This document shows positions 9,567-63,979 of a stretch of 64,000 bases of DNA, one piece after another (the stretch's first letter is position 1; each line of letters starts with the position of its first letter). The position numbers and the translations under genes were made by a program. The notes under the pieces were generated by a model. That model did no database searches, was not told where the DNA came from, and saw nothing but the letters and a program-made list of their open reading frames with translations. This DNA is from a phage: the sequence record PZ386963.1, one strand, 5' to 3'.

Positions 9567-9823
9567 TTTTACTCCCTCTAAAATCATTAACCTCATACAT
9601 TACTGCAAAAAATTATAAAAAGCAAGTTGACAATGCACTTGACAAGGTGTTAATCTTTGCGAAGTGGGTTTTTACTTAAAAGGTTACTTAACAGTTTAAC
9701 TATACAGATACTTTAAAACTCTTAAAAGATTATTTAATAGCTTTTAAAAAGCTTTAAAGTATAACGTATAGAATACGTTAAGATAAAAGATTAAAACTTA
9801 ATAGTTACTTAAAAGAGGCTTAC

Positions 9824-10246
9824 ATGCAGAAAATGTTTGTTCACCCAGACATAGCTGACTTTGTTAGAGCTTTGCAGAAGTTGGAAGAACTTGACATTGC
9901 TGCTCAACGGGAATATGCTCACCATCACAGGAGAATGGTTGATATACAACATGAAATAGAGTTATCTGAAAACTATGAAGATGACTTAAAATGCTCTGTG
10001 TTTGAGCATATGAAAGATGTTGCTACAGCGAGACGTAAAGCTAAAGACACAGTTGCTTTACTAGATTCTCTTAAAAAGAGGTTGCAAAGTGGTACAGACC
10101 TGTGTAATCTAGCGTCACTGATTAACGATGTTGAAACTTCTTGGGATAGGCACTATTATCCACGTTCTGAAAAGACACTTGACTTTTCTTCATCCGAAAA
10201 CTTAAAATGTTCTAGAAAGAAGCTTAACCAACTGAGAGAGAAATAA
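9824..10246 (+). CDS. Hypothetical protein
   Basis: 140-aa ORF, first gene of plus-strand block. Confidence 0.4.
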   Translation: MQKMFVHPDIADFVRALQKLEELDIAAQREYAHHHRRMVDIQHEIELSENYEDDLKCSVFEHMKDVATARRKAKDTVALLDSLKKRLQSGTDLCNLASLINDVETSWDRHYYPRSEKTLDFSSSENLKCSRKKLNQLREK

Positions 10247-34100: not shown

Positions 34101-35231
34101 ATGACTACTAAAACTAAAGCACAGATTGACGCAGAAATTTACAAACTGGTTAAAGAAGGTAAGCTGACTAAAACAGCTATTGCACAGAAATTTAATACTT
34201 CAACCCGTTCAGTTGGTCGTGCTGTAGAGCGTCATGAAGCAACCTTAAAAGGTAATAAGAAGGCGACTTCTACACCAGCTACGAAGACTTTGAAACAAGT
34301 TGCTAAGACTTTGAAACAAGTTGCTAAGACTTTTAAAAAGAAATCTGGCAAACAAGTTGAAAAGGTCGTTAAAGATGCTGTACAGAAAGCTCCAGTAAAT
34401 AAACTGCATGAAGCTATGCAGAAAGATGACAAAATTGAGTACATGATTACTGGTGACTCTGTAATTATGACTTACGGTTCAGAGTCTGAAATTGTTGAAT
34501 CTACTCATCCGAACTATCAAGAGATTGTAGTTCATGTTGTGAAAGGTGAGTTCAAGAAAGCCTTTGAACTGATGAACATTCGTAAGTCTATCGAAAACTT
34601 CACTCAGGGTGCTATCACAATCAAAGGTGACAAGTTATTCTACGGTGCTGTTGAGATGCGCTCTACTCTGGTTGACCGTATTCTTCACATGATGAAGACT
34701 GGAGATAAAGGTTTTGAACGCCTTGTGATGTTCTTCGAAAAACTGATGGAAAACCCATCTAAAGACTCTGTAGAACAACTTTGGGGCTTTGTATCTCACC
34801 TTGATGTTGAAATTGATGAAGAAGGCTACATCATTGGTTGGAAGAAAGTCTCTACTCGTGAAGGTAAGCTGGTTGACTCCCACACCTACAGAGTACCTAA
34901 TGATTTGGGTAACATTGTAGAGATGCCACGTTGGATGGTTGATAATAACCGTAACGTAACTTGCTCTCAAGGTCTTCATGTTGGTGCTTGGGATTATGTT
35001 CGTTGCTTCTCAGGTGATACAATCCTGAAGGTTCGTGTCCATCCACGAGATGTTGTATCTGTTCCAACTGATTACAATGATATGAAGATGCGCTCGTCTC
35101 GTTATGAAGTTGCAGCAATCGTTGATAGTCAACGTAAAGTGCTGAAAGCATGGGATGGCAAGACTGACGCTTTACATGTCATCGTCGGTACTGCTGGAGA
35201 ACTTATCTCCCAACGTAAACGTGAAATCTAA
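34101..35231 (+). CDS. rIIB: rIIB-like protein (by position and size)
   Basis: 376 aa directly after rIIA-like gene; contains in-frame 21-bp tandem duplication (KTLKQVA x2). Confidence 0.4.
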   Translation: MTTKTKAQIDAEIYKLVKEGKLTKTAIAQKFNTSTRSVGRAVERHEATLKGNKKATSTPATKTLKQVAKTLKQVAKTFKKKSGKQVEKVVKDAVQKAPVNKLHEAMQKDDKIEYMITGDSVIMTYGSESEIVESTHPNYQEIVVHVVKGEFKKAFELMNIRKSIENFTQGAITIKGDKLFYGAVEMRSTLVDRILHMMKTGDKGFERLVMFFEKLMENPSKDSVEQLWGFVSHLDVEIDEEGYIIGWKKVSTREGKLVDSHTYRVPNDLGNIVEMPRWMVDNNRNVTCSQGLHVGAWDYVRCFSGDTILKVRVHPRDVVSVPTDYNDMKMRSSRYEVAAIVDSQRKVLKAWDGKTDALHVIVGTAGELISQRKREI

Positions 35232-35237
35232 TAAGTA

Positions 35238-35270
35238 ATTTCTTAAAAGGCTGCTTCGGCGGCCTTTTTT
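35238..35270 (+). terminator. Rho-independent terminator
   Basis: GGCTGC-TTCG-GCGGCC hairpin plus TTTTTT. Confidence 0.6.
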
Positions 35271-35331
35271 ATTTGTATTTTGTGCAGAGTGCTGTATAAT
35301 TGTTGTCACGATAAACTAAACAGGAGAACCA

Positions 35332-35880
35332 ATGAAGAAATTGATTCTAGGTTTGTGCTTAATGTTTACAGCACACTTATCTTATGCAGTTGACTGCCCA
35401 GAGCTATCAATTAGCCAAAAAGTAAACATGTTAAAAGCTTACCAGTATGGTGAGAATAACATGGGTAAAGGTTGGGGTATCACTCTAGCTGCTATAGCCT
35501 TACAAGAGTCAGAGTTAGGTCTGAAGGTAGAGAATAAAAAGACACATGATTATGGTATTTTCCAGAATCACTTGAAGACTGTTGTAAAGCGTAACAAAAT
35601 TAGCCCTAATGTGGCTAAAAAGAAACTCTTAAAAGACTTTGACTATGCTGCGAAGGAAACACACAAAGAACTTGAGTTTTGGACAAAGGTGCATGGTCAG
35701 CCAAAGTCAAAGAAGACTTTACAAAAAGTTTTAGCATCATATAATGCTGGGTATTCGTACAGAATCCCTAAAGCTAAGAAATATTCTCAAGATGTCTATA
35801 ACAATATGAAAGTAATCGCTCAATGTGAATTTGCAACAAACATTTCTAAGGTAAACCATGAAAAAATTAAGAAAGTCTGA
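35332..35880 (+). CDS. Secreted lytic transglycosylase (SLT-domain) protein
   Basis: Signal peptide MKKLILGLCLMFTAHLSYA; AIALQESELG and SYNAGYS motifs. Confidence 0.55.
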   Translation: MKKLILGLCLMFTAHLSYAVDCPELSISQKVNMLKAYQYGENNMGKGWGITLAAIALQESELGLKVENKKTHDYGIFQNHLKTVVKRNKISPNVAKKKLLKDFDYAAKETHKELEFWTKVHGQPKSKKTLQKVLASYNAGYSYRIPKAKKYSQDVYNNMKVIAQCEFATNISKVNHEKIKKV

Positions 35881-36553
35881 TGAAGTATTGTGCCATGCTT
35901 ATGACTTGCACCCTCATGAGTTAGGTCTTGATTCCTGTGTATGGACTCCAGAACAGTGCAGGGATTTTGAAGACACCGCAAGAGAAGTTGTATGTTCACT
36001 TGAAGAGTTCCACACATCAGAACCAATTGTGAACGTTGTGGACAAAAAGACTGGACAAGCTATAGGTGTAAGTCGTGATAGCTTAGTCATAGTCAATAAA
36101 GACCTTGTAGAAAAAGGGAATCTCATCTTAGCAGATATTGATGGTGTTCTTACAAATTTTAATCACGAAGATTGTTCAACGGAATTGACTGACGGTTCAT
36201 TCTCGCAGTATACCAATCTTCTTGATTCTGTAAGAGCAAAGCCGACGTATGTTTTCAATATCATTGATGCAATTGCTAATCATGCTGCTGTTGGACTCTT
36301 GACAGCGAGAGGCGAATCTCAGAGAATACCTACTGAGATGTTTTTAAGGCATAACACAGAGCATGACTACATGCTTTTTATGCGTGGTTTTGGGACTAAC
36401 TCTATAAGTGCAGAAAGTTTGAAAGTGAGGATGATTCAGTCTTGCATTCTGCCTTACTTTAATATAGTATGTTTTATAGAAGACACAGAGAAGAATGTGC
36501 AGAAGGTGAACAGAATCCTTCCACACATCAAAACCATGTTAGTTAAACATTGA
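35858..36553 (+). CDS. HAD-superfamily phosphatase-like protein (possible 5'-deoxynucleotidase)
   Basis: DIDGVLTNF resembles HAD motif I DxDG; start uncertain. Confidence 0.35.
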   Translation: MKKLRKSDEVLCHAYDLHPHELGLDSCVWTPEQCRDFEDTAREVVCSLEEFHTSEPIVNVVDKKTGQAIGVSRDSLVIVNKDLVEKGNLILADIDGVLTNFNHEDCSTELTDGSFSQYTNLLDSVRAKPTYVFNIIDAIANHAAVGLLTARGESQRIPTEMFLRHNTEHDYMLFMRGFGTNSISAESLKVRMIQSCILPYFNIVCFIEDTEKNVQKVNRILPHIKTMLVKH

Positions 36554-36563
36554 GAGAAAACTT

Positions 36564-37028
36564 ATGAACAATATCATTACGGTAGCACTGGACGTTACGG
36601 CAAACAAATCTGAAGTAGTTCGTAACATTATCAAGAGTAACTTTGAGGGTAAAATCTTCCGTGCTGTCAATGTAAAAGCAGACGGTAACATCCGAGAGTA
36701 TCGTGCTCTTTTGAATGTTAAGAAACACGTAAAGGGTTCTGGCTCAACGACAGCACACAAAGAAAACCTGATGACTATCTATGATATGGGTATGGCTTCA
36801 GAATTAGGTGCTGAAGGTATCGTTAAAGAAGGTGCTCCGTATCGCTCTTTCAATCTGGAAACTGCTCTTATGCTTTCCTTTACAAGTGGTTCTAAAACAA
36901 CTACTTATCTCTTTACTGATGCTGCAACGGTATCTGCTATCAAGGATAGCACTGTCAAAGCTGGGGTAGCTGCTGCTGCAAAAGCTTCTTCGATGGCTGC
37001 AAATGTCCTTGCTAAAGTCCTCGGTTAA
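36564..37028 (+). CDS. Hypothetical protein
   Basis: 154-aa ORF followed by terminator. Confidence 0.4.
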   Translation: MNNIITVALDVTANKSEVVRNIIKSNFEGKIFRAVNVKADGNIREYRALLNVKKHVKGSGSTTAHKENLMTIYDMGMASELGAEGIVKEGAPYRSFNLETALMLSFTSGSKTTTYLFTDAATVSAIKDSTVKAGVAAAAKASSMAANVLAKVLG

Positions 37029-37039
37029 GGTTAAGATAC

Positions 37040-37068
37040 AGGCTCCTTCGGGAGCCTTTTTCATTTTA
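37040..37068 (+). terminator. Rho-independent terminator
   Basis: GGCTCC-TTCG-GGAGCC hairpin plus T-run. Confidence 0.6.
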
Positions 37069-37080
37069 GGAGATTGTTAA

Positions 37081-37428
37081 ATGACATTTAAAGAGTTCTG
37101 TCAAGCTACTTTCATAATTGTTTTCTTAGTTGGTGCAGGTGTCTGGGGAGGATACTCTTACAGAGACTATCAAGTTGCTGAAACTGAGCTAAACAATCAA
37201 AAGCTCATAAGTGTTGCTAAAGATGCTTATCAGGAAGGATTAGTCACACTGAGCACCAATTACAAAAATGATTTGAAAGATGTACTTGCTAAGAATAAGC
37301 ATACAAAAGAGGTACTAACATATGAAAAAACTAAGCCAGAGTTTTATAATGTTTGTGTTACTGATAACTATGTCAGGGTGTTCAACGAACAAAGTGAACA
37401 GTACATTCAAAAACTCCCAAGTAAGTGA
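37081..37428 (+). CDS. Membrane-anchored hypothetical protein
   Basis: N-terminal hydrophobic helix. Confidence 0.35.
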   Translation: MTFKEFCQATFIIVFLVGAGVWGGYSYRDYQVAETELNNQKLISVAKDAYQEGLVTLSTNYKNDLKDVLAKNKHTKEVLTYEKTKPEFYNVCVTDNYVRVFNEQSEQYIQKLPSK

Positions 37429-37591
37429 GAGCGATAAGTACACTCAAGAAGAGTCACGGTATATCATCAAAGGTAACACAGGCAGTGATGTAGCAGCAGC
37501 CCTTGAGTTCTATCGTGACGGCTTTTACCAGTGTACAATCAAAGCTAATAACCTTATTGACATGATTTTATTAGGGAATAAGCAGCAATGA
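37322..37591 (+). CDS. Putative lipoprotein
   Basis: Signal peptide with lipobox-like LITMSGC; overlaps previous ORF in another frame. Confidence 0.4.
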   Translation: MKKLSQSFIMFVLLITMSGCSTNKVNSTFKNSQVSESDKYTQEESRYIIKGNTGSDVAAALEFYRDGFYQCTIKANNLIDMILLGNKQQ

Positions 37592-37857
37592 CAGAGAATC
37601 AAGATACTTTCTATGTAGAAGGTTACTTACTGTTACCACGACCAAAAGAAACTTATATGCGAATTGATTTCTCACCAACCATCATGGATAATGTGATGTG
37701 CCATATCTTTATGCAAGGTGTCACAGCACAACTTAAGCATGTTGGCAAAGAGTGCAAAATAAAGGTTGACACTCATCCAGAAATCAAAGAGAATCACTAC
37801 ACATGGTTCTTACCAGACTCTAAAGAAATCTTAGCAGTTCTTAAAACGAGGAAATGA
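37588..37857 (+). CDS. Hypothetical protein
   Basis: 89-aa ORF. Confidence 0.35.
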   Translation: MTENQDTFYVEGYLLLPRPKETYMRIDFSPTIMDNVMCHIFMQGVTAQLKHVGKECKIKVDTHPEIKENHYTWFLPDSKEILAVLKTRK

Positions 37858-38168
37858 TTATGCAATTCCAGCCAACAAATCGTGGATTTTCTTATGCAGA
37901 ATTTAAAGATGCTAAAGGGGAAATTTGTACTTTACAAGAGAGTTCATCATACGAACCATGTATCTGGTTAGGTGCTAAAGAGGTCTCTGTTCAGTACCTA
38001 GATAATGGCTGGAAAACACTTGATATCCCAGCATTAGTGGGCAAAGATTTTGTAGGTAACCAAAGAATGAAGCTCAATCAAGAACAGGTAAAAGAGTTGT
38101 TGCCGTACCTCCAATACTTTGCTGAAAATGGTGAATTACCAACAGAGGAACTTACAAATGCAGATTAA
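37854..38168 (+). CDS. Hypothetical protein
   Basis: 104-aa ORF. Confidence 0.35.
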   Translation: MIMQFQPTNRGFSYAEFKDAKGEICTLQESSSYEPCIWLGAKEVSVQYLDNGWKTLDIPALVGKDFVGNQRMKLNQEQVKELLPYLQYFAENGELPTEELTNAD

Positions 38169-38484
38169 TGGAAGAGACTTTGTAGCCGTTTACTACGAGA
38201 AAGGCAAAGAGGTTGGTGTAGCACAAGTAACTTATGGCAATGGTAAGTGGCTATATGGGACAATCGCAGTAGTAGGAACAAGAAGTGATACAAAAACTTT
38301 TAAAGATTGTGTTGACCTTCTTGAAGAATCCATCCAGAATCATTGGTGTCTGATATGGATGACTGATAACGAAGTGATGGAGCGTTTCAAAAAGATTGAT
38401 ATCAACATTGACAGTATTGAGCATGTTGATTTATATGAGCTAACTGAGAAGGTAAACTATGAAAGTAATACTAGCCAGAGATAA
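38159..38484 (+). CDS. Hypothetical protein
   Basis: Start at MQING behind AGAGGA RBS. Confidence 0.35.
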
Positions 38485-45895: not shown

Positions 45896-46144
45896 ATGGC
45901 TACTATCCGCGCAACTGTTAACGAATTTGGCTTCTACTCTCTGGACGTTAAATTTGACCTTGTAGGTACTGATAACGCCTTTGAAATGGTGAAAGGCCTT
46001 ATCAGTCAGACCATCAGTGACTACAACCCCTCCGATGAATTCTGGGAGGAAACAAAACAGGAAGTTCTTACGCATGGTCACACTTATCACTATTGGGGAG
46101 AAAAAATCGTCTCCCTGTACTACGACAAAGAAGGCACTAACTAA
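45896..46144 (+). CDS. Cassette gene 14, hypothetical
   Basis: 82 aa; followed by hairpin GGGGCTAAATAGCCCC. Confidence 0.45.
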   Translation: MATIRATVNEFGFYSLDVKFDLVGTDNAFEMVKGLISQTISDYNPSDEFWEETKQEVLTHGHTYHYWGEKIVSLYYDKEGTN

Positions 46145-46229
46145 ACGCCGCAACGGGGCTAAATAGCCCCAGATACCTTTACAGCCCCTTAAATGGGGCT
46201 TTTTTACGTCTATCGAATCCTTATACAAC

Positions 46230-47800
46230 CCCTTTCCTTCTCCTTTCTAGAATCTTATCAGACCTTAAAAGCAATAACTCTATAGTCTACTCTATAGCCT
46301 TTTATCAAATCAGTTTAAATATAAGCCCATAACCCGAAAGGGAAGGGCAACCACTAAAACGCTCTATAACGCCCTATAACAGCCTTATCAACCTAACTTA
46401 AGGTATTGCATTACCTCACCCTTAAAAGCCCTTTATAGAGCTTCTTAGAGCCTTAAAAGAATCTTATAAGTGTGTAAGCTTTATCATCTCGTTAGTATTC
46501 TTGTGAACTACTATAAAGGACTTGTTAGTGTCTTAAAAGTATGTTATAGGGGCTGTTAAGTTACTTTGAAGTAGCTTAAAAGTTACGTAAAAGAGGCTAT
46601 GAAGTTACGTAAATGCTAGCCCCCTTAACATTTTCTTAACAATTTCTTAACAAACCCTACATAGTTATGCTTGTTAGCCCCTTGTTAAATCTCTGTTAAG
46701 ACCACGTAAAAGCTTTGTAAGAGTCTTTGGCATAGCCTTAAAAGCTCCTGTAAAGCCATATAAAGAGCTATCTGTACAGTTGGGGTGTAACTACTAGGAA
46801 GAGACTTAAAAGAGCCTATACAGAGCTATAGAGAGCTTTTAAAAGGTATGTTTAAGGAATCACTAAGAAAGGAAAGGGAACGATAAGAAAGAAGAGTTGT
46901 GTTTGTAAACAACCACTGTGACCATGTTAATAGCTTGTTAAAAAGATTAAACACTTGTTAGGAACTTGTTAATTATCTTAACAAAATAACTCTTAAAAAT
47001 TAACTTGTTAGCTCTTGTTAGTCATCTGTTAAGCCTCTGTAAAGACTATTCAGCACTTGTTAGGAAACTGTTACACCCTTGTTAGTTCTGTTAAGAAACT
47101 GTTAAGACCTTTGAAGAGTTGTTAATAAGATGTGAGAACTGTTAAGAGATTGTTAAGGATATTTTAAAATTTTGCAAAGTACTTGTAAGGGAGCTGTTAA
47201 GGGCTACCAAGCAGATATACATCCTAGACAGATATTTTTCAGTTCCTTCAAAGACCCTAAAAAATGACTTGACAGTCCTATTTTATAAAAATTTTAAAAT
47301 TCTGAATAATTACCTATACAGTCTTTTAAAAATACAGGTAGAAACAGGCTTATAAGATACCTTGTTAGTACCGTGTTAGACCTTGTGAGATAAGGTCTGT
47401 AAAGATATTCCTGTTAAGTTTGTTAAAACAGTCTATATAGAGGCTTAGTAATACCTAGTGAACACCTATAGAGGTGTATCATAGCTGACATAGAGATTAA
47501 GAGGTGTATAGGAGCTTCTAAGAGGGTGTAGAGGGATGGTTAAGGTAATTGTATAGGTTGTTAAGAAGGCTTGTTAGAAGAGTGTTTAGAAGGCTTGTTA
47601 GAGGGCTAGTTAGAAGGGTTATACAGAGGGGCTATTAAGACCACTAGATAGATACTAAGATACTATATAGTACTATATAACTATATAGAGAGTAAGATTA
47701 AGAAGATTGTTAAGAAGGATAGATATTTTGTTCACATATGATGGTGACCCAGAGGTTGGGACAACCGATAAAATTTTATAAAAATTAAAAAGCCCCCAAT
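46230..47800. repeat. About 1.6 kb ORF-free region saturated with short degenerate repeats (CTTGTTAG / CTGTTAAG / CTTAAAAG / CTGTAAAG families, both orientations)
   Basis: Dozens of 7-9-mer copies; no ORF of 60 aa or more on either strand; sits between convergent gene blocks. Confidence 0.7.
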
Positions 47801-47821
47801 TAAGGAGGCTCTTAAGATATT

Positions 47822-48427
47822 TTAAATCAGATTTTCTAAAACTGCTTTTAGTGATGACTTAGTTGTCTGATAAAAATGAGTGAATCCATTGTTGTTATCA
47901 AATATCTGCATCATGATATCATCTCCCTTGATTGGATACACTCGGATATCATAGTGAAACCCATTAAAGACAGCAGAACCATTACAGAATACACTAAAAT
48001 CACTTGCTGAGATATACTCTTCATGACCTGTGATTTTTATACAGACACCTTTACTCGGTCTCTTAGGGTTGATATCTTCCATCACAGACATACTCTGCCC
48101 ACCAAGAGATACCATCGTGACCACTTTACGGTTCTTCTGTTTAAAGTACATTTTAACTTTCTGTAAAGTGTCTTCATAGAACGGATAAGACTTCTCTACA
48201 AAGATTCCTTCCAATGGCTCTTTACCATTTTCAACTTCTCTGTTATGCCGTACTGCAAAGATAATTTGTTCGAACCAGTCAAGATTTTCTTCGGAGAGTG
48301 CTTCTCGAATATCACTCCAGTCAAGGACTAGGTAGTTACCTTCAACTTCTTTTAAGTTATCTTTTTCCATAGCTATCACACCATTATCGTAAGACTTGGT
48401 AATCTGGTACTGCAAACTTGTTGTCAT
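47822..48427 (-). CDS. Hypothetical protein
   Basis: 201-aa ORF (start may be internal Met). Confidence 0.4.
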   Translation of the reverse strand: MTTSLQYQITKSYDNGVIAMEKDNLKEVEGNYLVLDWSDIREALSEENLDWFEQIIFAVRHNREVENGKEPLEGIFVEKSYPFYEDTLQKVKMYFKQKNRKVVTMVSLGGQSMSVMEDINPKRPSKGVCIKITGHEEYISASDFSVFCNGSAVFNGFHYDIRVYPIKGDDIMMQIFDNNNGFTHFYQTTKSSLKAVLENLI

Positions 48428-56666: not shown

Positions 56667-58082
56667 ATGAGCGAATTATTTAAACATGCGCACCTTCATG
56701 CAGGTCGAACTGAAAATGGTGCTGTAAACCATACTTCATCAATGTCTGCTCTTGTAGACTTTTACAAAGCTGCTGGTTCAAGCCGTAGCAACGTAGAAAT
56801 CTTACCAGACCTGTTCTATAAAGCTTTGCGTGAGGATGTTGATGTTGCAGTTCGTATTTTACTGCATATGCGAGATGTACGAGAAGGTATGGGTGAGCGT
56901 AAAGCCTTCAGAACTGTTTTGCTTCAAGCAATTGAAGATAAAGTTTTAGAGCCTACACAGGTTCTTCGCATTATGGATAAGATTGCAGAACTTGGTCGTT
57001 TTGATGACTTCAAAATCTTCGCAGGTACTCGTTTCGAGACAGATGCCTTCAAACATTTAGAAGCAGCATTACTAGACCCTGCAACAGCAGGTTTGGCAGC
57101 CAAGTGGTTACCACGAGTCAAACCACGTCACAAACAGTTTGTAAAACGTTTCTGCAAGTTTGCCAACTTGAGTGAGAAAGAGTACCGCACACTGTTGTCT
57201 GCACTATCTGATACAGTTGAGCAAAAAATCTCTGCTAATGAGTTTGGTAAGATTGATTACAGTAAGATTCCTTCACTTGCTGCTGCACGTTACCAAAAGC
57301 TGTTTAACCGCAAAGATGGAGAACGCTACAAAGCTTACATCGAGTCTTTATCAAAGGGTGAGACTAAGATTAATGCTGGTGCTGTTTACCCATACGATGT
57401 GATTAAGTCTGTTAAGTATGGTAATGCAGATGTTGCTAATGAGCAATGGAAAGCACTACCAAACTGGATGGCAGAGGGTGAAAACATTCTATGTATGTCT
57501 GATGTTTCATGTTCAATGTCTTGGGTGAATTTTGGCTCCATTACTGCTCTGGATATTGGTGTATCACTTGCATTGTATGTAGCAGAACGCAATACAGGTT
57601 GCTTTAAAAATGAGTTGATGGTTTATTCAACAAACCCTCACTTCATCGAACTGAGTGGTGATTTACGAAATCGCCATCGTCAGGTGATGCGACACGTTGA
57701 ATATGGTTCAACTAACTTACAAGCAGCTTTTGACCGTATTCTTGAGACAGGTAAAAGAAACAACTTGACTCAGAAAGATATGCCAAGTAAGCTTATCATC
57801 TTCTCCGATATGGAGTTCAATCAGGTTGATGGAGCTAACGGTCGTACAAACTTTGAAGCAATTCAGAGTAAGTACAAAAAAGCTGGATATGAGATGCCAC
57901 AACTGGTATTCTGGTACTTAGCAAACCGTAATGGTACTTGCGAAGTATCTGTTAAGGATAACGGTGTAGCAATGGTATCTGGTTTCTCCCCAGCCACTTT
58001 AAAAGCTCTGCTTGGTGGTGAGAAGTTTGACCCAATCAGCGTAATGCTCAAAGCAGTAATGATTGACCGTTATATCTGGTAA
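56667..58082 (+). CDS. vWA-domain protein with N-terminal helical domain (TROVE/Ro60-like or DUF2828-like architecture)
   Basis: MIDAS-like DVSCSMS (DxSxS) with downstream conserved Thr/Asp positions; 471 aa; directly upstream of tRNA cluster. Confidence 0.5.
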   Translation: MSELFKHAHLHAGRTENGAVNHTSSMSALVDFYKAAGSSRSNVEILPDLFYKALREDVDVAVRILLHMRDVREGMGERKAFRTVLLQAIEDKVLEPTQVLRIMDKIAELGRFDDFKIFAGTRFETDAFKHLEAALLDPATAGLAAKWLPRVKPRHKQFVKRFCKFANLSEKEYRTLLSALSDTVEQKISANEFGKIDYSKIPSLAAARYQKLFNRKDGERYKAYIESLSKGETKINAGAVYPYDVIKSVKYGNADVANEQWKALPNWMAEGENILCMSDVSCSMSWVNFGSITALDIGVSLALYVAERNTGCFKNELMVYSTNPHFIELSGDLRNRHRQVMRHVEYGSTNLQAAFDRILETGKRNNLTQKDMPSKLIIFSDMEFNQVDGANGRTNFEAIQSKYKKAGYEMPQLVFWYLANRNGTCEVSVKDNGVAMVSGFSPATLKALLGGEKFDPISVMLKAVMIDRYIW

Positions 58083-58248: not shown

Positions 58249-58325
58249 CTCTGTTTAGCTCAGCTTGGTAGAGCGTTCCGTTTGGGGCGGTAAGGCCGGA
58301 GGTTCAAGTCCTCCAACAGAGACCA
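58249..58325 (+). tRNA. tRNA-Pro (anticodon TGG), CCA encoded
   Basis: Cloverleaf by eye: acceptor CTCTGTT/AACAGAG, D-arm GCTC/GAGC, loop TTTGGGG, T-loop TTCAAGT. Confidence 0.7.
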
Positions 58326-58332
58326 AATTAAT

Positions 58333-58410
58333 GTTCCAGTAGACAAAATGGTAAAGTCACCACTCTTTCAAAGTGGATATCTGAGGGTTCAAATCCCTTC
58401 TGGAACGCCA
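58333..58410 (+). tRNA. tRNA-Glu (anticodon TTC), CCA encoded
   Basis: Acceptor GTTCCAG/CTGGAAC, anticodon stem CCACT/AGTGG, loop CTTTCAA. Confidence 0.65.
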
Positions 58411-58416
58411 GTTTTG

Positions 58417-58492
58417 ACAGAAGACCAATTACAGCAAACTTAATCTTATTCATCTGAAGGTAAATCGGACAAAGAAGAGATTTGGTCTGGTC
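58417..58492 (+). ncRNA. Conserved inter-tRNA hairpin element, copy 1 (candidate small RNA or processing signal)
   Basis: ACAGAAGACCAATTACAGCAA at 5' end pairs with TTGGTCTGG at 3' end. Confidence 0.35.
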
Positions 58493-58502
58493 ATTAAGAA
58501 TT

Positions 58503-58578
58503 GCGGGTATAGAGAAAGGGCGTCTCACATGTCTCATTAGCATGGTATCGGCAGGTTCGACTCCTGCACCCGCCTCCA
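58503..58578 (+). tRNA. tRNA-Met/Ile2 (anticodon CAT) with unpaired position 1-72
   Basis: D-stem GAGA/TCTC, anticodon stem CATGT/GCATG, loop CTCATTA, T-arm GCAGG/CCTGC. Confidence 0.55.
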
Positions 58579-58583
58579 AATTT

Positions 58584-58650
58584 ACAGAAGACCGTTTACA
58601 GCAATATTTATTAAATTTTTAGCGGAAAAATTGAAAGATACGGTCTGGTA
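58584..58650 (+). ncRNA. Conserved inter-tRNA hairpin element, copy 2
   Basis: ACAGAAGACCGTTTACAGCAA ... ACGGTCTGG. Confidence 0.35.
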
Positions 58651-58661
58651 ATACTAAACAT

Positions 58662-58738
58662 GGTTAGGAAGCACATAAGGTATGTGCGGTCGCCTGTTAA
58701 GCGAATGGCACAGGGTTCGAATCCCTGACTAACCGCCA
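58662..58738 (+). tRNA. tRNA-Asn (anticodon GTT)
   Basis: D-stem GCAC/GTGC, loop CTGTTAA, T-arm CAGGG/CCCTG, 3' end ACTAACC-G-CCA. Confidence 0.65.
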
Positions 58739-58807
58739 AATTTAGGAGAGAAGCGATTGCTCACCGATTTGTAAGGTGCAAGTCCTTAGCCTGAATAGAA
58801 ATTAAAT

Positions 58808-58895
58808 GTGTCGTTATCCCGTAGATGGTAGCGGTGGGGACTGTAAATCCCTTGTCATTGAGACTCGGTAGGTTCGACTCCTACACGGCACACCA
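58808..58895 (+). tRNA. tRNA-Tyr (anticodon GTA), long variable arm
   Basis: Acceptor GTGTCGT/ACGGCAC, loop CTGTAAA, 15-nt variable arm, T-loop TTCGACT. Confidence 0.65.
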
Positions 58896-58900
58896 ATAAA

Positions 58901-58978
58901 GGTTATGTAGTTTAATTTGGTTAAAATACTCCCCTGTCACGGGAGATGATGAGGGTTCAAATCCCTTCGTAACCGCCA
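58901..58978 (+). tRNA. tRNA-Asp (anticodon GTC)
   Basis: Acceptor GGTTATG/CGTAACC, anticodon stem CTCCC/GGGAG, loop CTGTCAC. Confidence 0.65.
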
Positions 58979-59038
58979 ATTTTGAGAGGGCTATTTAGCC
59001 CCTCCCTTAAAGAGTTCTTACGAGTATTCTTTAAAGGA

Positions 59039-59113
59039 GCAGAAGACCAAATACAGCAAGTTACTTAAAATTTCAAGCCAATTTAATTTTGAAAAATTTA
59101 AAACTTGGTCTGG
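59039..59113 (+). ncRNA. Conserved inter-tRNA hairpin element, copy 3
   Basis: CAGAAGACCAAATACAGCAA ... TTGGTCTGG. Confidence 0.35.
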
Positions 59114-59125
59114 CTCAACAAATTT

Positions 59126-59258
59126 ACAGAAGACCGTTTACAGCAAAACTTAAACAATCTATTTCTCGGTAAAGAAAAGGTGAAGGTTCGATTCCTTCAC
59201 TCGGCAGATGTCGAGTTGGTGTAATGGTAGCACTTAAGATGATAAACAACGTTCTGGT
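59126..59258 (+). ncRNA. Conserved element copy 4 containing tRNA-like T-arm and D-arm fragments
   Basis: ACAGAAGACCGTTTACAGCAA ... GAAGGTTCGATTCCTTC ... GTTGGTGTAATGGTAGCAC ... AACGTTCTGG. Confidence 0.3.
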
Positions 59259-59402
59259 AATTATCTTTGTAGATAAGTTATTAAGCTTACCTGTGAGTAT
59301 GCGACCACAAAGGGTGAAAGGGTAAATTCTAGATTTAAACCCAAAAAGGCACATCGCTACAGACCTTAAGCAAGTCTGGGTAGCTTATCTACAAAGATAA
59401 TT
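59257..59402 (+). ncRNA. Candidate structured RNA closed by a 17-bp long-range inverted repeat
   Basis: TTATCTTTGTAGATAAG (59261-59277) is the exact reverse complement of CTTATCTACAAAGATAA (59386-59402), enclosing ~108 nt. Confidence 0.35.
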
Positions 59403-59406
59403 TAAT

Positions 59407-59482
59407 GGAAGTGTAGCAGAATGGTGATGCGGCAGACTTTTAATCTGACAGGCGATGGGTTCGAATCCCTCCACTTCTACCA
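59407..59482 (+). tRNA. tRNA-Lys (anticodon TTT), weak T-stem
   Basis: Acceptor GGAAGTG/CACTTCT, loop CTTTTAA, T-loop TTCGAAT; two T-stem mismatches. Confidence 0.55.
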
Positions 59483-59486
59483 AAAT

Positions 59487-59563
59487 GGTTCAGTCGCAGA
59501 TAAGGTAATGCAAGGGTCTCATAAGCCCTATGAATGTGGGTTCGAATCCCATCTGAACCTCCA
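59487..59563 (+). tRNA. tRNA-Met/Ile2 (anticodon CAT)
   Basis: Acceptor GGTTCAG/CTGAACC, anticodon stem AGGGT/GCCCT, loop CTCATAA. Confidence 0.65.
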
Positions 59564-59565
59564 AT

Positions 59566-59640
59566 TGTGGGTTAGCATAAATGGTAATGCAAACGGCTGA
59601 TAACCGTTAGAAGAGGGTTCGATACCCTCACCTACAACCA
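59566..59640 (+). tRNA. tRNA-Ile (anticodon GAT)
   Basis: Acceptor TGTGGGT/ACCTACA, anticodon stem AACGG/CCGTT, loop CTGATAA. Confidence 0.6.
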
Positions 59641-59655
59641 ATTTCAATAAAGTTG

Positions 59656-59684
59656 TTGACATTGAAATGTGACTACTTTATAGT
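59656..59684 (+). promoter_or_regulatory. Sigma70-like promoter inside the tRNA cluster
   Basis: TTGACA-17-TATAGT; flanked by ATTTCAA/TTGAAAT inverted repeat. Confidence 0.5.
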
Positions 59685-59977
59685 AACTAAAATACTTCAT
59701 AATATGTATAATTCAAACACCAATACATGAGCGTTAGACGTAACACAATGTGGGGAAATTTGTTGTACATATTCTGAATAGTTTTCGTTGCGTAGCGTCT
59801 ATTTTGCAAATTTAAAATAAATGCAAACGACAATGTTTTTCTGGCAGTAGCTTGATAGGCTAAACACCAGTGAGGTCTTCCAATCCCTCATCAAAGAATT
59901 TGGCGTACTCGCCCACGGTATGATTAATAAGGTGGGCATCTTTAAGGGCTTTCTAAGAGAGTCTTTAAAGATAATTA

Positions 59978-60059
59978 CGGGGCGTATCTCAGCGGTCTTC
60001 TAAACCGCCGTTAACCGAGTAAGTGGAGTATGCGGGTTCGAGTCCTGCCGCCTCGACCA
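59978..60059 (+). tRNA. Atypical tRNA-like gene (possible Arg, anticodon TCT); D-arm not resolvable
   Basis: Acceptor CGGGGCG/CGCCTCG, stem-loop GCGGT-CTTCTAA-ACCGC, T-arm GCGGG/CCTGC, CCA encoded. Confidence 0.4.
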
Positions 60060-60202
60060 ATTTAGTTAGCAGATTACTTAGACGACCTAAGCGGGTCTTC
60101 CTGTAGGGAGGTGGTCTGTATCTCATGTTTTCCAGAACATGTAAATAATCTGAGAAGGGGCTTTACAGTGTTGAGATAATACGGTAAGCTTCGAATTATA
60201 GT

Positions 60203-60285
60203 ATGGGACGATGTTAAGACTCTAAGGCATGAGCAACGGCCTCCAAAACCGTTTCAAAGGGGTTCAACTCCTCCGTCCCATGCCA
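60203..60285 (+). tRNA. Atypical tRNA-like gene with Trp anticodon arm (CCA); ~7 extra nt between acceptor and D-arm
   Basis: Perfect acceptor ATGGGAC/GTCCCAT, D-arm CTC/GAG, loop CTCCAAA, T-loop TTCAACT. Confidence 0.45.
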
Positions 60286-60298
60286 AAGTCTTATTATG

Positions 60299-60388
60299 GG
60301 TAGGTAGCGGCTAATGGTAGCCAAACTGTCTTGAAAACAGTTGCCACTGTAGAGATACGGTGAGGGTTCGACTCCTTTACTTACCGCC
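60299..60388 (+). tRNA. tRNA-Ser (anticodon TGA), long variable arm
   Basis: Acceptor GGTAGGT/ACTTACC, anticodon stem ACTGT/ACAGT, loop CTTGAAA, 20-nt variable arm. Confidence 0.65.
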
Positions 60389-60543
60389 TAATAAGATTTT
60401 AAAGCCAAGCTTCATTCGGATGTTGCTTTGGTATCCCTCGTGTATTGTCGTACACACTGATAAAGCACCTAGTAGGTGTCACGGAGAAGAGATAATATCA
60501 AGCTCTCCAAAGGTTCTAGTCACCGGATTAAACAAGACTATGC

Positions 60544-60566
60544 AAAGACCTTTTTAGGTCTTTTTA
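60544..60566 (+). terminator. Rho-independent terminator-like hairpin within tRNA cluster
   Basis: AGACC-TTTTTA-GGTCT followed by TTTTT. Confidence 0.5.
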
Positions 60567-60644
60567 GAGGGCTTCTAAGGTTATTACAGCTTGTTGTGGA
60601 ACCTTGTTGCTTAGGTTCTTAGAAGTTCTCTAAAAAGATTTAAT

Positions 60645-60722
60645 GGGAGATTGATGGTAATTGGTAAACCTACCATCCTTAGAAGTTGGTGTTTGAGGGT
60701 TCGAATCCCTTGTCTCCTACCA
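60645..60722 (+). tRNA. Atypical tRNA (possibly Leu, anticodon TAG; short variable arm)
   Basis: Acceptor GGGAGAT/GTCTCCT with wobble ends, loop CTTAGAA, T-arm GAGGG/CCCTT; D-arm irregular. Confidence 0.45.
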
Positions 60723-60729
60723 AATTAAT

Positions 60730-60805
60730 GCAGGTGTAGCAAAATGGTTATGCGGCTGACTCTTAATCAGTAAGACGACGGGTTCAATTCCCTCCACCTG
60801 TACCA
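60730..60805 (+). tRNA. tRNA-Lys (anticodon CTT)
   Basis: Acceptor GCAGGTG/CACCTGT, D-stem GCA/TGC, anticodon stem GCTGA/TCAGT, loop CTCTTAA. Confidence 0.6.
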
Positions 60806-60811
60806 GACATT

Positions 60812-60887
60812 GGGGTCATAGTTTATATGGTTAAAATTCGAGTTTTGCAAACTTGGGAACTGAGTTCAATTCTCAGTGACTCCACCA
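60812..60887 (+). tRNA. tRNA-Ala (anticodon TGC)
   Basis: Acceptor GGGGTCA/TGACTCC with G3:U70 pair, loop TTTGCAA, T-arm CTGAG/CTCAG. Confidence 0.7.
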
Positions 60888-60893
60888 ATTAGT

Positions 60894-60968
60894 GCATCCA
60901 TAGTTTAAACGGGAAAATTACAGTCTTCCAAACTGAGGTTGAGGGTTCGATTCCCTCTGGATGCTCCA
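60894..60968 (+). tRNA. tRNA-Gly (anticodon TCC)
   Basis: Acceptor GCATCCA/TGGATGC, loop CTTCCAA, T-arm GAGGG/CCCTC. Confidence 0.65.
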
Positions 60969-60974
60969 AACAAT

Positions 60975-61051
60975 GCTGCTTTCGTATAATTGGCTATTAC
61001 ACATCCCTTGTAAGGATGGAGATGCGGGTTCAAGTCCTGTGAGCAGCACCA
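60975..61051 (+). tRNA. tRNA-Thr (anticodon TGT)
   Basis: Acceptor GCTGCTT/GAGCAGC, anticodon stem CATCC/GGATG, loop CTTGTAA. Confidence 0.65.
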
Positions 61052-61146
61052 ATTCAGAGGTCAAGTGAAAGACCGCTGGTGTCAACTGAAGACCGTAACA
61101 AATTCCACGGAGTTGAGTTAGCGGCACAACTTCAGACCTCTTTCAC
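61052..61146 (+). ncRNA. Inter-tRNA spacer with long-range inverted repeat (candidate structured RNA)
   Basis: AGAGGTC (61056-61062) pairs with GACCTCT (61134-61140). Confidence 0.3.
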
Positions 61147-61221
61147 ACTCGCTTAGTTTATATGGTAAAACATCACCCTTACAAGATGAAGAAAAAGGTT
61201 CAAGTCCTTTAGTGAGTACCA
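61147..61221 (+). tRNA. tRNA-Val (anticodon TAC)
   Basis: Acceptor ACTCGCT/AGTGAGT, D-stem GTTT/AAAC, loop CTTACAA, T-arm AAAGG/CCTTT. Confidence 0.6.
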
Positions 61222-61222
61222 T

Positions 61223-61300
61223 GTTCCAGTATCCCAATTGGCAGAGGATGCAAGCTCAAACCTTGTATTAGTGACGGTTCGAATCCGTCTTGGAACACCA
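61223..61300 (+). tRNA. tRNA with anticodon CAA (Leu) but short variable arm
   Basis: Acceptor GTTCCAG/TTGGAAC, anticodon stem GCAAG/CTTGT, loop CTCAAAC, T-arm GACGG/CCGTC. Confidence 0.5.
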
Positions 61301-61305
61301 ATTTT

Positions 61306-61381
61306 GCAGGATTAGTTCAAATGGATAGAGCAACAGTCTACGAAACTGTTAATAGGGGTTCGAATCCCTTATCCTGCGCCA
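61306..61381 (+). tRNA. tRNA-Arg (anticodon ACG)
   Basis: Acceptor GCAGGAT/ATCCTGC, D-arm GTTC/GAGC, anticodon stem ACAGT/ACTGT, loop CTACGAA. Confidence 0.7.
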
Positions 61382-61399
61382 GATAAGCAAGAGGAATTT

Positions 61400-61642
61400 A
61401 TGCAAACATTAACCGTCGTTGAACATGAAAATTCCAATAGTATTGAGTTTGTAAGGGTTCCCACTATAGATACCCACATTTTCTTAAAAGTCGGATGGGA
61501 ATGCGACCCAATAAAAGTAGAAAGATTTATTGGTCATTGCTTTGGTGGAAGACAACTTAAAAGTATCAATTTTGAGACAATGTTACCAGAAAGCTCAGAA
61601 ACAAATAATAATGCTTACCTCCTTACGAGGGTTAGACAATGA
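61400..61642 (+). CDS. Hypothetical protein embedded in tRNA cluster
   Basis: 80 aa behind AAGAGGA RBS. Confidence 0.45.
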   Translation: MQTLTVVEHENSNSIEFVRVPTIDTHIFLKVGWECDPIKVERFIGHCFGGRQLKSINFETMLPESSETNNNAYLLTRVRQ

Positions 61643-62196
61643 GATACTTAAAATATGCTTCATGGATTTTCTTAGCTTTACTAGACCCAATTGCAGCAAT
61701 CCTAGCAGTTATCTTAGCACCTTTCGTAGTTCCATTCTACAGTGAGAAGAAAGGGCATCTACCTTTTGGATTCAGATGGATGGAGACCTATGACAACCCA
61801 ATTGATGGTGATGAAGGTCACGTTAAAAGATGGGCTAAGGTTAGAAAGATTGGTAAGCTGGGTGTCTACATGCAGAGAGTCGGATGGCTCTGGAGAAACA
61901 AAGCTTATAACTTCTCTTACCATGTATTAGGAAGAGATGTAAAAGATGTTACTAAGTGGAAAGGTAATATCAACGTAAGTTCTGACCCTGAAGATAATCA
62001 GACAGGTTATCTCCTAATGTGGAACAACAATGCTTGGGGATTATTCGCTTTTATTCCGTCAATTAAAGTCTTTGGTAAACAGTTTTACTGGAGAATCTAT
62101 GTTGGATGGAAACTAAAAAGTGTTGTCCCAGAAGAAAGAGCATTCTCAAGGGAAAGAGTTATGTTGGCATTCTTTATTCATCCACTGAGAAAGTAA
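61639..62196 (+). CDS. Membrane-anchored hypothetical protein embedded in tRNA cluster
   Basis: 185 aa, hydrophobic N-terminal ~30 aa, Trp-rich; ATGA overlap with previous gene. Confidence 0.45.
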   Translation: MRYLKYASWIFLALLDPIAAILAVILAPFVVPFYSEKKGHLPFGFRWMETYDNPIDGDEGHVKRWAKVRKIGKLGVYMQRVGWLWRNKAYNFSYHVLGRDVKDVTKWKGNINVSSDPEDNQTGYLLMWNNNAWGLFAFIPSIKVFGKQFYWRIYVGWKLKSVVPEERAFSRERVMLAFFIHPLRK

Positions 62197-62204
62197 AGAT
62201 TTAA

Positions 62205-62280
62205 AGGGGATTAGTTTACAAGGTTAAAACCTCGGTCTTTGAAATCGAAGAAGTTGGTTCAATTCCAACATCCCCCGCCA
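62205..62280 (+). tRNA. tRNA-Gln (anticodon TTG), position 1-72 unpaired
   Basis: D-stem GTTT/AAAC, anticodon stem TCGGT/ATCGA, loop CTTTGAA, T-arm GTTGG/CCAAC. Confidence 0.6.
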
Positions 62281-62282
62281 AT

Positions 62283-62361
62283 GCTCCATTACTCCAATTG
62301 GCAGAGAGGCCAGACTTAAAATCTGTGTTATGTATCGGTTCGAATCCGATATGGAGTACCA
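62283..62361 (+). tRNA. tRNA with anticodon TAA (Leu), short variable arm
   Basis: Acceptor GCTCCAT/ATGGAGT, loop CTTAAAA, T-arm ATCGG/CCGAT. Confidence 0.5.
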
Positions 62362-62366
62362 AATTT

Positions 62367-62442
62367 AGCGGTATAGCATAACTGGCAATGCAGCAGTCTC
62401 TGAAGCTGTCCTATTAAGGTTCAAATCCTTATGCCGCTGCCA
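62367..62442 (+). tRNA. tRNA-Gln (anticodon CTG)
   Basis: Acceptor AGCGGTA/TGCCGCT, D-arm GCAT/ATGC, loop CTCTGAA, T-arm TAAGG/CCTTA. Confidence 0.6.
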
Positions 62443-62473
62443 CTTCTAAGGGTTCTTACGAGAGTCCTTAAAT

Positions 62474-62549
62474 GTGGCCTTATCATAAATGGTAATGACC
62501 CATGCTGTGAACATGGTCTATACGGGTTCAAATCCCGTAGGTCACCCCA
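62474..62549 (+). tRNA. tRNA-His (anticodon GTG), discriminator C
   Basis: Acceptor GTGGCCT/AGGTCAC, D-arm TCAT/ATGA, anticodon stem CCATG/CATGG, loop CTGTGAA. Confidence 0.7.
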
Positions 62550-62554
62550 ATTTA

Positions 62555-62631
62555 TAGTCCAAGTAGCTTATATGGTTAAAGCGCGTGTCTGAAAAACATG
62601 AGAAGAGGGTTCAAATCCCACTGGACTACCA
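62555..62631 (+). tRNA. tRNA-Phe (anticodon GAA), irregular acceptor-to-D-arm spacing
   Basis: Acceptor TAGTCCA/TGGACTA, D-stem GCTT/AAGC, loop CTGAAAA, T-loop TTCAAAT. Confidence 0.55.
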
Positions 62632-62647
62632 ATTTCAAAGGTGCTTA

Positions 62648-63382
62648 ATGAAAGAGATGACAGAACAAGGTAAGGAGATTTTTAATCTCTTAAAAACCGG
62701 TAAAGGGTTTTCTAACCCACTTATTACTGGTGCAGCAGTTCTCGGTGGAACCGTAGCTGCCTCTACATCACTTGTAAGCTCTATTAGCTCTGTAACAGAC
62801 CCTACAATGAAGGAGAAGCTTGTTGCTGCTGGACTTACAACAGTCCTTCTAAACAGCTTTACAACAAGCCTGACAAGCACTACAGCAACTACTAAGACCC
62901 TAACAGACTATGGTCAAAAGTCTATTGATGAGTTTTCATCACGTATGCAGGTAGCAAAGGGGTACTCCAATGTTATGGGTGCAGCAGGAGAACAAGTTGG
63001 TTGTACACCATTCAGTGGTATTATGGGTGTTGCTACAGAGTACGGTCAGCAAGCTATTGGCATGATTAACAGCACACTAGACAGTGTTAACGGTGTGTTA
63101 AGTGATTTACAAGACGCTATTGATGAGGGTCTTGATACTGTTTCTGATTTAGCTAATCAGGCTGTTAGTAAGATTAATGAAGGTATCTCAAAGATTACAG
63201 CTTATGCAGATGAAGTTGTGCAGATGATTGAAGAAGAAGCTGCCCTTATTGCAGAGTACCTTAAAACGAATATCAATGGGTTCTTAGCAGGTATCTTACC
63301 AGACTGGTTTGATGATGCTTGTAAAACTGGTGTAATTGACACCATTGCAACACCAGAAATGAAGAGCGCATTACAGAAATAA
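62648..63382 (+). CDS. Ser/Thr-rich hypothetical protein embedded in tRNA cluster
   Basis: ATG at 62648 just after tRNA-Phe; 244 aa with low-complexity S/T segment. Confidence 0.45.
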   Translation: MKEMTEQGKEIFNLLKTGKGFSNPLITGAAVLGGTVAASTSLVSSISSVTDPTMKEKLVAAGLTTVLLNSFTTSLTSTTATTKTLTDYGQKSIDEFSSRMQVAKGYSNVMGAAGEQVGCTPFSGIMGVATEYGQQAIGMINSTLDSVNGVLSDLQDAIDEGLDTVSDLANQAVSKINEGISKITAYADEVVQMIEEEAALIAEYLKTNINGFLAGILPDWFDDACKTGVIDTIATPEMKSALQK

Positions 63383-63383
63383 T

Positions 63384-63476
63384 GGAAGATTAACCCTAAA
63401 AGGTAAGGGAGCAGTTTGCTAAACTGCCAGTAGCTGAGAAATCGGTGTACCAGTTCAAGTCTGGTATCTTCCTCCA
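63384..63476 (+). tRNA. tRNA-Ser (anticodon GCT), long variable arm
   Basis: Acceptor GGAAGAT/ATCTTCC, anticodon stem GCAGT/ACTGC, loop TTGCTAA, T-arm ACCAG/CTGGT. Confidence 0.65.
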
Positions 63477-63480
63477 ATCT

Positions 63481-63556
63481 GAATCCGTGACAGAAATGGA
63501 TATGTGCCTGTCTGCAAAACAGGTTTATAAGGGTTCGAGTCCCTTCGGATTCTCCA
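63481..63556 (+). tRNA. tRNA-Cys (anticodon GCA)
   Basis: Acceptor GAATCCG/CGGATTC, anticodon stem CCTGT/ACAGG, loop CTGCAAA, T-arm AAGGG/CCCTT. Confidence 0.65.
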
Positions 63557-63778: not shown

Positions 63779-63979
63779 ATGAGCGAGAACGTTTATAAAG
63801 AACTTTATGAAGCTAACAAGAAGTTAGAGTTTATGCAGAATACTATCATGGCAATTGCAGATAGATTATCTGTAGCAACAGGTATTGATATTAAAGAAGC
63901 ATCTATGGATGCACTTCTTGATGCTGTTGATGTAAAGTTCGAAGTTAAGAAAGAAGAGACTGCTACAGACTCTGAATAA
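63779..63979 (+). CDS. Hypothetical protein
   Basis: Start at MSENVYKE behind GGAG RBS; preceded by GACGG...CCGTC-TTTTTT hairpin. Confidence 0.4.
   Translation: MSENVYKELYEANKKLEFMQNTIMAIADRLSVATGIDIKEASMDALLDAVDVKFEVKKEETATDSE

Follow-up and report, generated by a model that had tools for sequence, protein, structure and literature searches.

The 64,000-nucleotide stretch of phage DNA analyzed here (the window) contains, at positions 46230-47820, a region that encodes no sizable protein and is crowded with short repeats. What does a phage use such a region for? An earlier note on this DNA, made from the sequence alone, proposed four roles: an origin of replication or array of iterons, an array of sites bound by a phage DNA-binding protein, a zone of transcription termination or insulation, and a site of small RNA genes. 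These proposals missed the key fact about the gap, which is that, by homology, it carries a direct terminal repeat (DTR) and hence the ends of the virion DNA.

Genomic setting of the gap

There is no ORF of 60 aa or more within 46230-47820, and the largest ORFs inside it encode 42, 31 and 30 aa. The plus-strand gene block ends at 46144 and the minus-strand block begins at 47822, indicating that the gap lies at a convergent gene-block junction. The earlier note had described both features correctly. A 1.68-kb query around the gap matched 257 phage records, nearly all of them from Felixounavirus, the genus of Felix O1-like myoviruses with Salmonella, E. coli and Shigella as hosts. The best database match to this query has 93.8% identity, and at least 80% of the query is covered in 191 records. 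The gene content of the window includes DNA polymerase A, a primase-helicase, ribonucleotide reductases, a probable rIIA homologue and an array of 25 tRNA genes, in agreement with the published Felix O1 map (PMC3185647). By its sequence, then, the 64-kb window is a Felixounavirus genome.

Directly upstream of the tRNA array (58249-63556) lies a gene at 56667-58082 for a DUF2828/DUF7788 protein (PHROG annotation "RNA-binding protein"); in Bas63, the protein encoded at the corresponding place before the tRNA genes is described as Ro60-like in the PhageMaP preprint. One additional tRNA-like sequence, at 59978-60056, is recognized by Rfam and has no ARAGORN call.

All annotated relatives have, at the homologous place, a gene-free region of 1.6-1.75 kb that separates a rightward block of small genes from a leftward one and has annotated terminators at both of its borders. 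When spacer synteny and length are compared among relatives, as the earlier note had suggested, the gene-free gap is found to be kept at 1.44-1.75 kb across four genera, along with its sequence. In the window, an intrinsic terminator at 46183-46207 on the plus strand (AGCCCCTTAAATGGGGCT followed by a T-run) marks the end of the rightward block and is annotated at the homologous place in phages AYO145A and Barry. A second intrinsic terminator at 47788-47813 on the minus strand marks the end of the leftward block and is annotated as a terminator in AYO145A and wV8. These two terminators shut transcription of both converging blocks out of the gap, so that the proposed termination and insulation zone holds for termination at the two borders.

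Some deposited records depart from this picture. Differing "hypothetical proteins" of 25-66 aa are annotated in the homologous gaps of UAB_69, SeKF_63, pEC-M719-6WT.1, P219 and Michonne, inconsistently between genomes, and they are probably gene-caller artefacts in a terminal repeat region. Felixounavirus-like sequence also occurs in two records with unexpected names. Staphylococcus phage SA1 (GU169904.1) has Felixounavirus-like DTR and DNA polymerase sequence at 135884-136463 and 95982-98467, and Campylobacter phage A132 (MG065664.1) has Felixounavirus-like sequence at 35231-38225 despite its unrelated host name. The matches of these two records to the Felixounavirus DTR and DNA polymerase are 88-91% identical, and both are probably chimeric or contaminated deposits.

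A terminal repeat within the gap

In Salmonella phage UAB_69, a 618-bp "DTR" is annotated inside the homologous gap. Exact duplications are present at both genome ends of Ro111lw (613 bp), SeKF_63 (613 bp) and NBEco005 (651 bp), and all three duplications have GCCCCCTTAACATTTTC as their first letters and GTTAAGGGCTACC as their last. Since both of these sequences are located in the window, the repeat can be placed at 46619-47208 (590 bp, ±2 nt), with boundaries transferred by homology from the relatives. The limits of the UAB_69 DTR correspond to window positions 46617-47210, which is 2 nt wider on each side. Besides UAB_69 and the records with exact duplications, at least eight others have termini at the DTR boundaries, among them several that begin (or end, on the other strand) exactly at query position 470, which is window position 46619. 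Erwinia phage MM7, of the genus Kolesnikvirus, has an exact 444-bp terminal duplication with homologous boundary sequences in a 1.44-kb gene-free junction. Both boundary sequences are nearly invariant in 13 genomes from three genera and are recognizable in a fourth. Among relatives, Bal31 digestion and run-off sequencing gave a DTR of 608 bp for UAB_Phi87 (PMC4837284), and PhageTerm gave one of 581 bp for Pr103Blw (PMC8303462).

The relatives' terminal duplications, together with the conserved boundary sequences in the window, show by homology that the gap is the Felixounavirus concatemer junction and holds one copy of a DTR of about 590 bp, that is, the physical ends of the virion DNA. Only a single copy is seen in the window because assembly collapses the repeat. 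The identical boundary sequences in homologues lead us to infer that the DTR stands at both ends of this phage's own virion DNA. As an explanation of the gap, a genome end is an ordinary one, and a DTR is already known for the genus.

The layout of the junction is right-end unique DNA (46145-46618), the DTR, and left-end unique DNA (47209-47821), so that about 470 bp of non-coding DNA lies to the left of the DTR and about 610 bp to its right. The left flank (46230-46618, plus strand) is unique non-coding DNA that in the virion would adjoin the right-hand DTR copy on its inner side. CTTAAAAG occurs in it at 46264, 46421, 46452, 46532 and 46575, together with words of the CTNTATAG type, and directly against the DTR boundary lies a direct repeat of 22 bp, AAGTTACGTAAA(A/T)G. 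In the left flank of Erwinia phage MM7, these flank words are replaced by TTCTAAG (about 14 copies), with the TGTTAAG word retained.

On the other side, a deeply conserved block at 47209-47260 (AAGCAGATATACATCCTAGACAGATATTTTTCAG) lies just outside the right DTR boundary and is recognizable even in MM7. About 70 bp to the right of the DTR is a conserved block of 90% A+T (47279-47318), which might help to unwind or bend the DNA or might act as a weak promoter. The right flank (47361-47714, plus strand), which would lie just inside the left-hand DTR copy in the virion, has TGTTA cores at 47363-47421, 47559-47596 and 47708, a 12-bp-period array of TTGTTAGAAGGC (4.9 copies) at 47558-47617, and palindromic CTATATAG words at 47433, 47663 and 47681. 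The palindromic words include a cluster of three copies of ACTATATAG at 47650-47689, in keeping with the TATAGTACTATATAACTATATAG cluster that the earlier note had seen near 47660. Tandem Repeats Finder and a second repeat finder independently detect 11-bp and 12-bp arrays and this same cluster.

The CTTAAAAG word is common beyond the gap, with 32 copies in the whole window versus 5.2 ± 2.2 expected; further examples are at 40396, 41245 and 43718. The copies are co-oriented with transcription, and about half of them lie in the scarce intergenic DNA, where some fall in two divergent regulatory regions and others in the stems of a terminator element that recurs between cassette genes. Their presence in the two divergent regions agrees with the earlier note and is accounted for by copies at 9675, 9721 and 9808 and at 56113, 56175 and 56184. 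The word may belong to a regulatory or terminator module of the phage.

Density, phase and conservation of the TGTTA cores

We compared the motif content of the gap to that of 2000 dinucleotide-preserving shuffles. The five 8-mers named in the earlier note occur 30 times in the gap versus 0.86 ± 0.91 expected (maximum 6), an excess of about 35-fold, indicating that the reported packing of the gap with this 8-mer family is real and is not that of a shuffled background. The note had also reported reverse complements of these motifs. The 8-mers are indeed abundant, but all 30 exact matches are on the plus strand, and reverse-orientation copies are limited to TTAACA cores at 46624-46653 and 46977. 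The TGTTA core occurs 30 times in the gap versus 3.6 ± 1.8 expected, and the dominant words built on it are CTTGTTAG, CTGTTAAG and TTGTTAA. There are 10 copies of CTTGTTAG in the gap versus 3 in the other 62 kb, and a 300-bp stretch contains up to 16 copies of TGTTA[AG] in the gap but no more than 4 anywhere else in the window. As a candidate motif family, CTNNNNAG retains only a 4-fold density excess; its strand counts are uninformative because the pattern is self-complementary.

Several groups of cores can be distinguished within the DTR. Three reverse TGTTAAG-type cores (CTTAACA, 11 bp apart) lie on the minus strand at 46624-46653, just inside the left boundary. Three forward cores (CTTGTTAG, CTTGTTAA and CTGTTAAG), likewise 11 bp apart, follow on the plus strand at 46670-46700, and their copy number differs between genomes in steps of 11 or 22 bp. 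The main array, 18 TGT[TA]A cores on the plus strand at 46925-47201, ends 8 nt before the right boundary.

The cores are not loosely spaced at "often 10-25 bp", as had been thought, but are sharply periodic. Successive TGTTA cores lie 11 bp apart, or 9-10 or 20-22 bp, and the pair distances of the motif peak at 11, 20-22, 31-33, 42-44, 51-53 and 62-64 bp. In a Rayleigh scan, the 18 cores of the main array have a best period of 10.32 bp (R = 0.83; null 99th percentile, 0.65) and all 25 DTR cores have a best period of 10.40 bp (R = 0.72), with both values above all 500 random-position nulls. The cores of FelixO1, wV8, Michonne and SUSP1 have phase periods of 10.40-10.44 bp, also above every random-position null. 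The helical repeat of B-DNA is 10.4-10.5 bp. With a core period equal to this repeat, the sites stay on a single face of the double helix for hundreds of base pairs.

The two ends of the DTR are related by inversion. The left end, with its three reverse cores, matches 47140-47167 in inverted orientation (28 nt, 86% complementary, z = 8.6 versus shuffles), and the DTR ends of MM7 form an inverted repeat as well (z = 10.6), so that the arrangement is found in both Felixounavirus and Kolesnikvirus. When the sequence is read directly inward from each virion terminus, TAGCCC(CC)-TTAACA-N5-TTAACA is encountered at both ends. The symmetry is imperfect, since the two ends are cut at positions that differ by about 4 nt with respect to TAGCCC, the word they share. 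Phased cores abut both DTR boundaries in inverted orientation, in the manner of the repeated recognition sites around the cleavage positions of a pac or cos site.

Comparison across genera points to selection on the gap, which is 77-79% identical to its counterparts in Mooglevirus and Suspvirus; the values are 53-67% for three flanking genes and 84-87% for DNA polymerase. The gap's mismatches are spread evenly over the three phases, whereas the flanking genes have the expected excess at third positions. Within the arrays, TGTTA positions are conserved at 0.71-0.84 in the distant genera and the spacers at 0.55-0.65. The TGTTAAG word is kept even in Erwinia phages with flanking genes just 41-49% identical.

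Among 13 genomes, all nine DTR indels of at least 5 bp measure 11, 21, 22 or 33 bp, whereas indels outside the DTR have arbitrary lengths. Two of the 21-22-bp DTR indels resemble small palindromic insertions and not copies of the 11-bp unit. A 21-bp DTR insertion at 46896-46916 is private to the window and keeps the helical register. The register is also kept by a 22-bp palindromic element, ATTGGTATTGTTACCAATCCCT, found at the equivalents of window position 46980 in Barry and wV8 and of position 47005 in UAB_69.

Candidate functions of the array

Given that the motifs are helically phased and that their cores are conserved, they are best read as a putative protein-binding array, and the binding-site array for a phage DNA-binding protein is the role proposed in the earlier note that these data favor. 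Tandem 11-bp direct-repeat operators are known from Pho boxes and from parC of plasmid R1, where they are bound head-to-tail by winged-helix or ribbon-helix-helix proteins. Like those operators, the window array combines a core of 7-8 bp with a spacer of 3-4 bp into a repeat of about 11 bp in one orientation. By analogy, the array may be bound cooperatively, head to tail, along a single face of the DNA. The operators differ from the window array in that there is no sequence identity between them and in that the context here is a virion terminus and not a promoter or a centromere.

Short recognition words also flank the cleavage sites of other phages, as in pacL and pacR of SPP1, the pac hexamers of P1 and the R sites in cosB of lambda, and in pac regions phasing or bending lets an oligomeric recognition protein wrap the DNA. 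The likeness to the window lies in multiple short, phased words beside a cleavage site. The differences are that those phages have headful packaging or cohesive ends and far fewer sites, whereas the window has about 25-30 sites over about 590 bp and an exact DTR.

The concatemer junction of T7 is, as an analogy, the closest mechanistic counterpart of the window array. It contains short-repeat arrays named SRL and SRR. When we checked the T7 sequence directly (NC_001604), we found [CA][CA]TAAAG heptamers, 17 of 17 on one strand and spaced by 13 bp, inside the 160-bp terminal repeat and on both sides of it. The two junctions thus share an exact short DTR and one-strand arrays of a short word in non-coding DNA by the ends. 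However, the T7 word is CCTAAAG at 13 bp and the window word is TGTTA(A/G) at 10.4 bp, the T7 arrays lie mostly outside the repeat, and T7 has a phage RNA polymerase promoter, a junction pause and the small terminase gp18, none of which is seen here. Since word, spacing and placement all differ, the likeness is one of analogy and not of homology. The DTRs of UAB_Phi87, UAB_69, Pr103Blw and MM7, by contrast, share with the window the same homologous locus, the boundary sequences and a similar length. The papers searched on Felixounavirus and other Ounavirinae DTRs give the repeat length only. In the papers searched, which dealt with Felix O1, UAB_Phi87, VpaE1, Michonne, Danish wastewater and PhageMaP, we found no account of phased arrays, of inverted DTR ends, of indels limited to whole turns or of a gap better conserved between genera than its flanking genes.

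With moderate confidence, we propose that the array is a one-face scaffold for protein binding that directs terminase to cut at the boundaries of the DTR. Motifs with the TGTTA(A/G) core would be binding sites for a phage protein, most plausibly an unrecognized small terminase or terminase accessory factor, which would polymerize on the one-face DTR scaffold or wrap it, and the scaffold would recruit the packaging nuclease to both boundaries. Duplication of a T7-type terminal repeat by strand-displacement synthesis needs nicks in opposite strands at its two boundaries. Because the same site is inverted at the two DTR ends, a complex of a single geometry could nick the two boundaries on different strands, the top one at the first and the bottom one at the second. 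In T7, packaging specificity maps to the terminal 5% of the genome, and recognition involves gp18 and gp19 (PMC3276506).

In Felixounavirus, only a large terminase (TerL) has been recognized, and it falls in a DTR cluster (PMC4837284). By synteny with SeKF_63, TerL starts just past the end of the window. We could not recognize a small terminase near TerL, next to the gap or elsewhere in the window; Pfam and PHROGs searches with ten ORFs flanking the gap and with the ORFs upstream of TerL returned only families of unknown function. Immediately upstream of the TerL start, at 63779-63979, is an ORF for an acidic, helix-rich protein of 66 aa that has no match in Pfam or in a PDB sequence search.

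The array might instead serve binding at the termini that is unrelated to cutting, such as protection from exonucleases, synapsis of ends to form concatemers, or interaction with the portal or tail in ejection. The injection-stop region of T5 is also repeat-rich. The two DTR ends are inverted-symmetric and the arrays within the DTR are present at both termini, so that both virion ends present the same inward-reading array and could bind a phage or host protein after ejection; in addition, a Chi site is absent, so there is no other attenuation of RecBCD. Nevertheless, the arrays reach outside the DTR on both sides, which fits recognition of a concatemer junction better, and end binding appeals to the same facts as terminase binding and has no candidate protein. 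We consider it unlikely. Distinctly unlikely, in our judgment, is a replication origin with iteron-like repeats and an adjoining A+T-rich unwinding element, even though the gap is highly conserved non-coding DNA with dense direct repeats and contains the 90% A+T block at 47279-47318. Iterons of plasmid and phage origins measure 17-22 bp, whereas the cores here are 5-8 bp long and lie one helical turn apart. DnaA boxes and IHF cores are absent from the gap, no initiator gene adjoins it, and the neighboring proteins lack replication domains. The genes for DNA polymerase and the primase-helicase flank a different region at 9.6-9.8 kb, about 37 kb away. The cumulative GC skew has its minimum at that region and its maximum at the gap, although skew is confounded with the direction of transcription and is for this reason a weak argument. 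The origin or iteron array of the earlier note thus finds no support. The divergent non-coding region at 9600-9830, between DNA polymerase on the minus strand and the primase-helicase block on the plus strand, coincides with the skew minimum and is a better origin candidate than the gap.

Could the repeats be filler, gathered by slippage at gene-free ends whose function is limited to the cut sites? The copy number of the 11-bp unit does differ between genomes, and slippage of an 11-bp tandem unit would by itself account both for cores 11 bp apart and for indels of that length. In T7, most positions of the genome ends accept single insertions, the exception being the vicinity of the left repeat's inner edge (bioRxiv 10.1101/2024.10.10.617714), and this tolerance across ends that hold arrays suggests that such arrays may be redundant or accessory. 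The long-range phase of 10.4 bp and the two 21-22-bp indels that are not copies of the unit count against slippage alone, in a way that is suggestive and not decisive. The filler explanation also has to contend with a gap that keeps its length and sequence across four genera and is far more conserved than the neighboring genes, with cores more conserved than their spacers, and with the retention of TGTTAAG in the Erwinia phages, and we regard it as very unlikely. To small RNAs or micro-proteins encoded in the gap we give hardly any credence. Tiny CDSs are annotated here in some records, and 11 of 13 genomes keep open a 26-aa ORF that crosses the right-hand limit of the DTR, but the annotated CDSs vary from record to record, an ORF spanning the boundary would be split at one end of the virion DNA, and the mismatches in the gap lack codon periodicity. 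Genomes share no ORF of at least 25 aa in the gap except ones of 26-29 aa that are explained by sequence conservation, which gives no sign of hidden genes or of frameshifted ORFs in homologues. The small RNA genes of the earlier note fare no better. Rfam finds none at the gathering score and, at E ≤ 1, only noise at a terminator; matches to sigma-70 promoters (7 versus 6.4 expected) are not above the shuffle background; and the best fold (z of about -3.5, at 46540-46660) lies in the least conserved segment of the gap, where most relatives have 11- or 33-bp deletions.

Felix O1-like phages are widely used in diagnostics and biocontrol of Salmonella and E. coli, and their engineering is under way, for example in Bas63. 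Knowing the chromosome ends matters for annotation, given how many deposited records start the genome at another position or contain spurious mini-genes within the gap, and it is useful in designing packageable vectors and synthetic genomes. As a defined cis-element, the phased array can serve as bait for the DNA-recognition subunit missing so far from the packaging machinery of this subfamily, and it is a cleaner system than T7 for asking what short-repeat arrays do at DTR junctions. A more specific version of the scaffold proposal, which we put forward tentatively and with more doubt than belief, is that the Ounavirinae DTR is a nucleoprotein scaffold of about 0.6 kb in which selection holds about 25-30 TGTTA sites on one face in a 10.4-bp register, only whole-turn indels are tolerated, the binder replaces a canonical small terminase, and identical inverted arrays stand at both ends. 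If true, this scaffold would represent a distinct way to define and duplicate exact terminal repeats.
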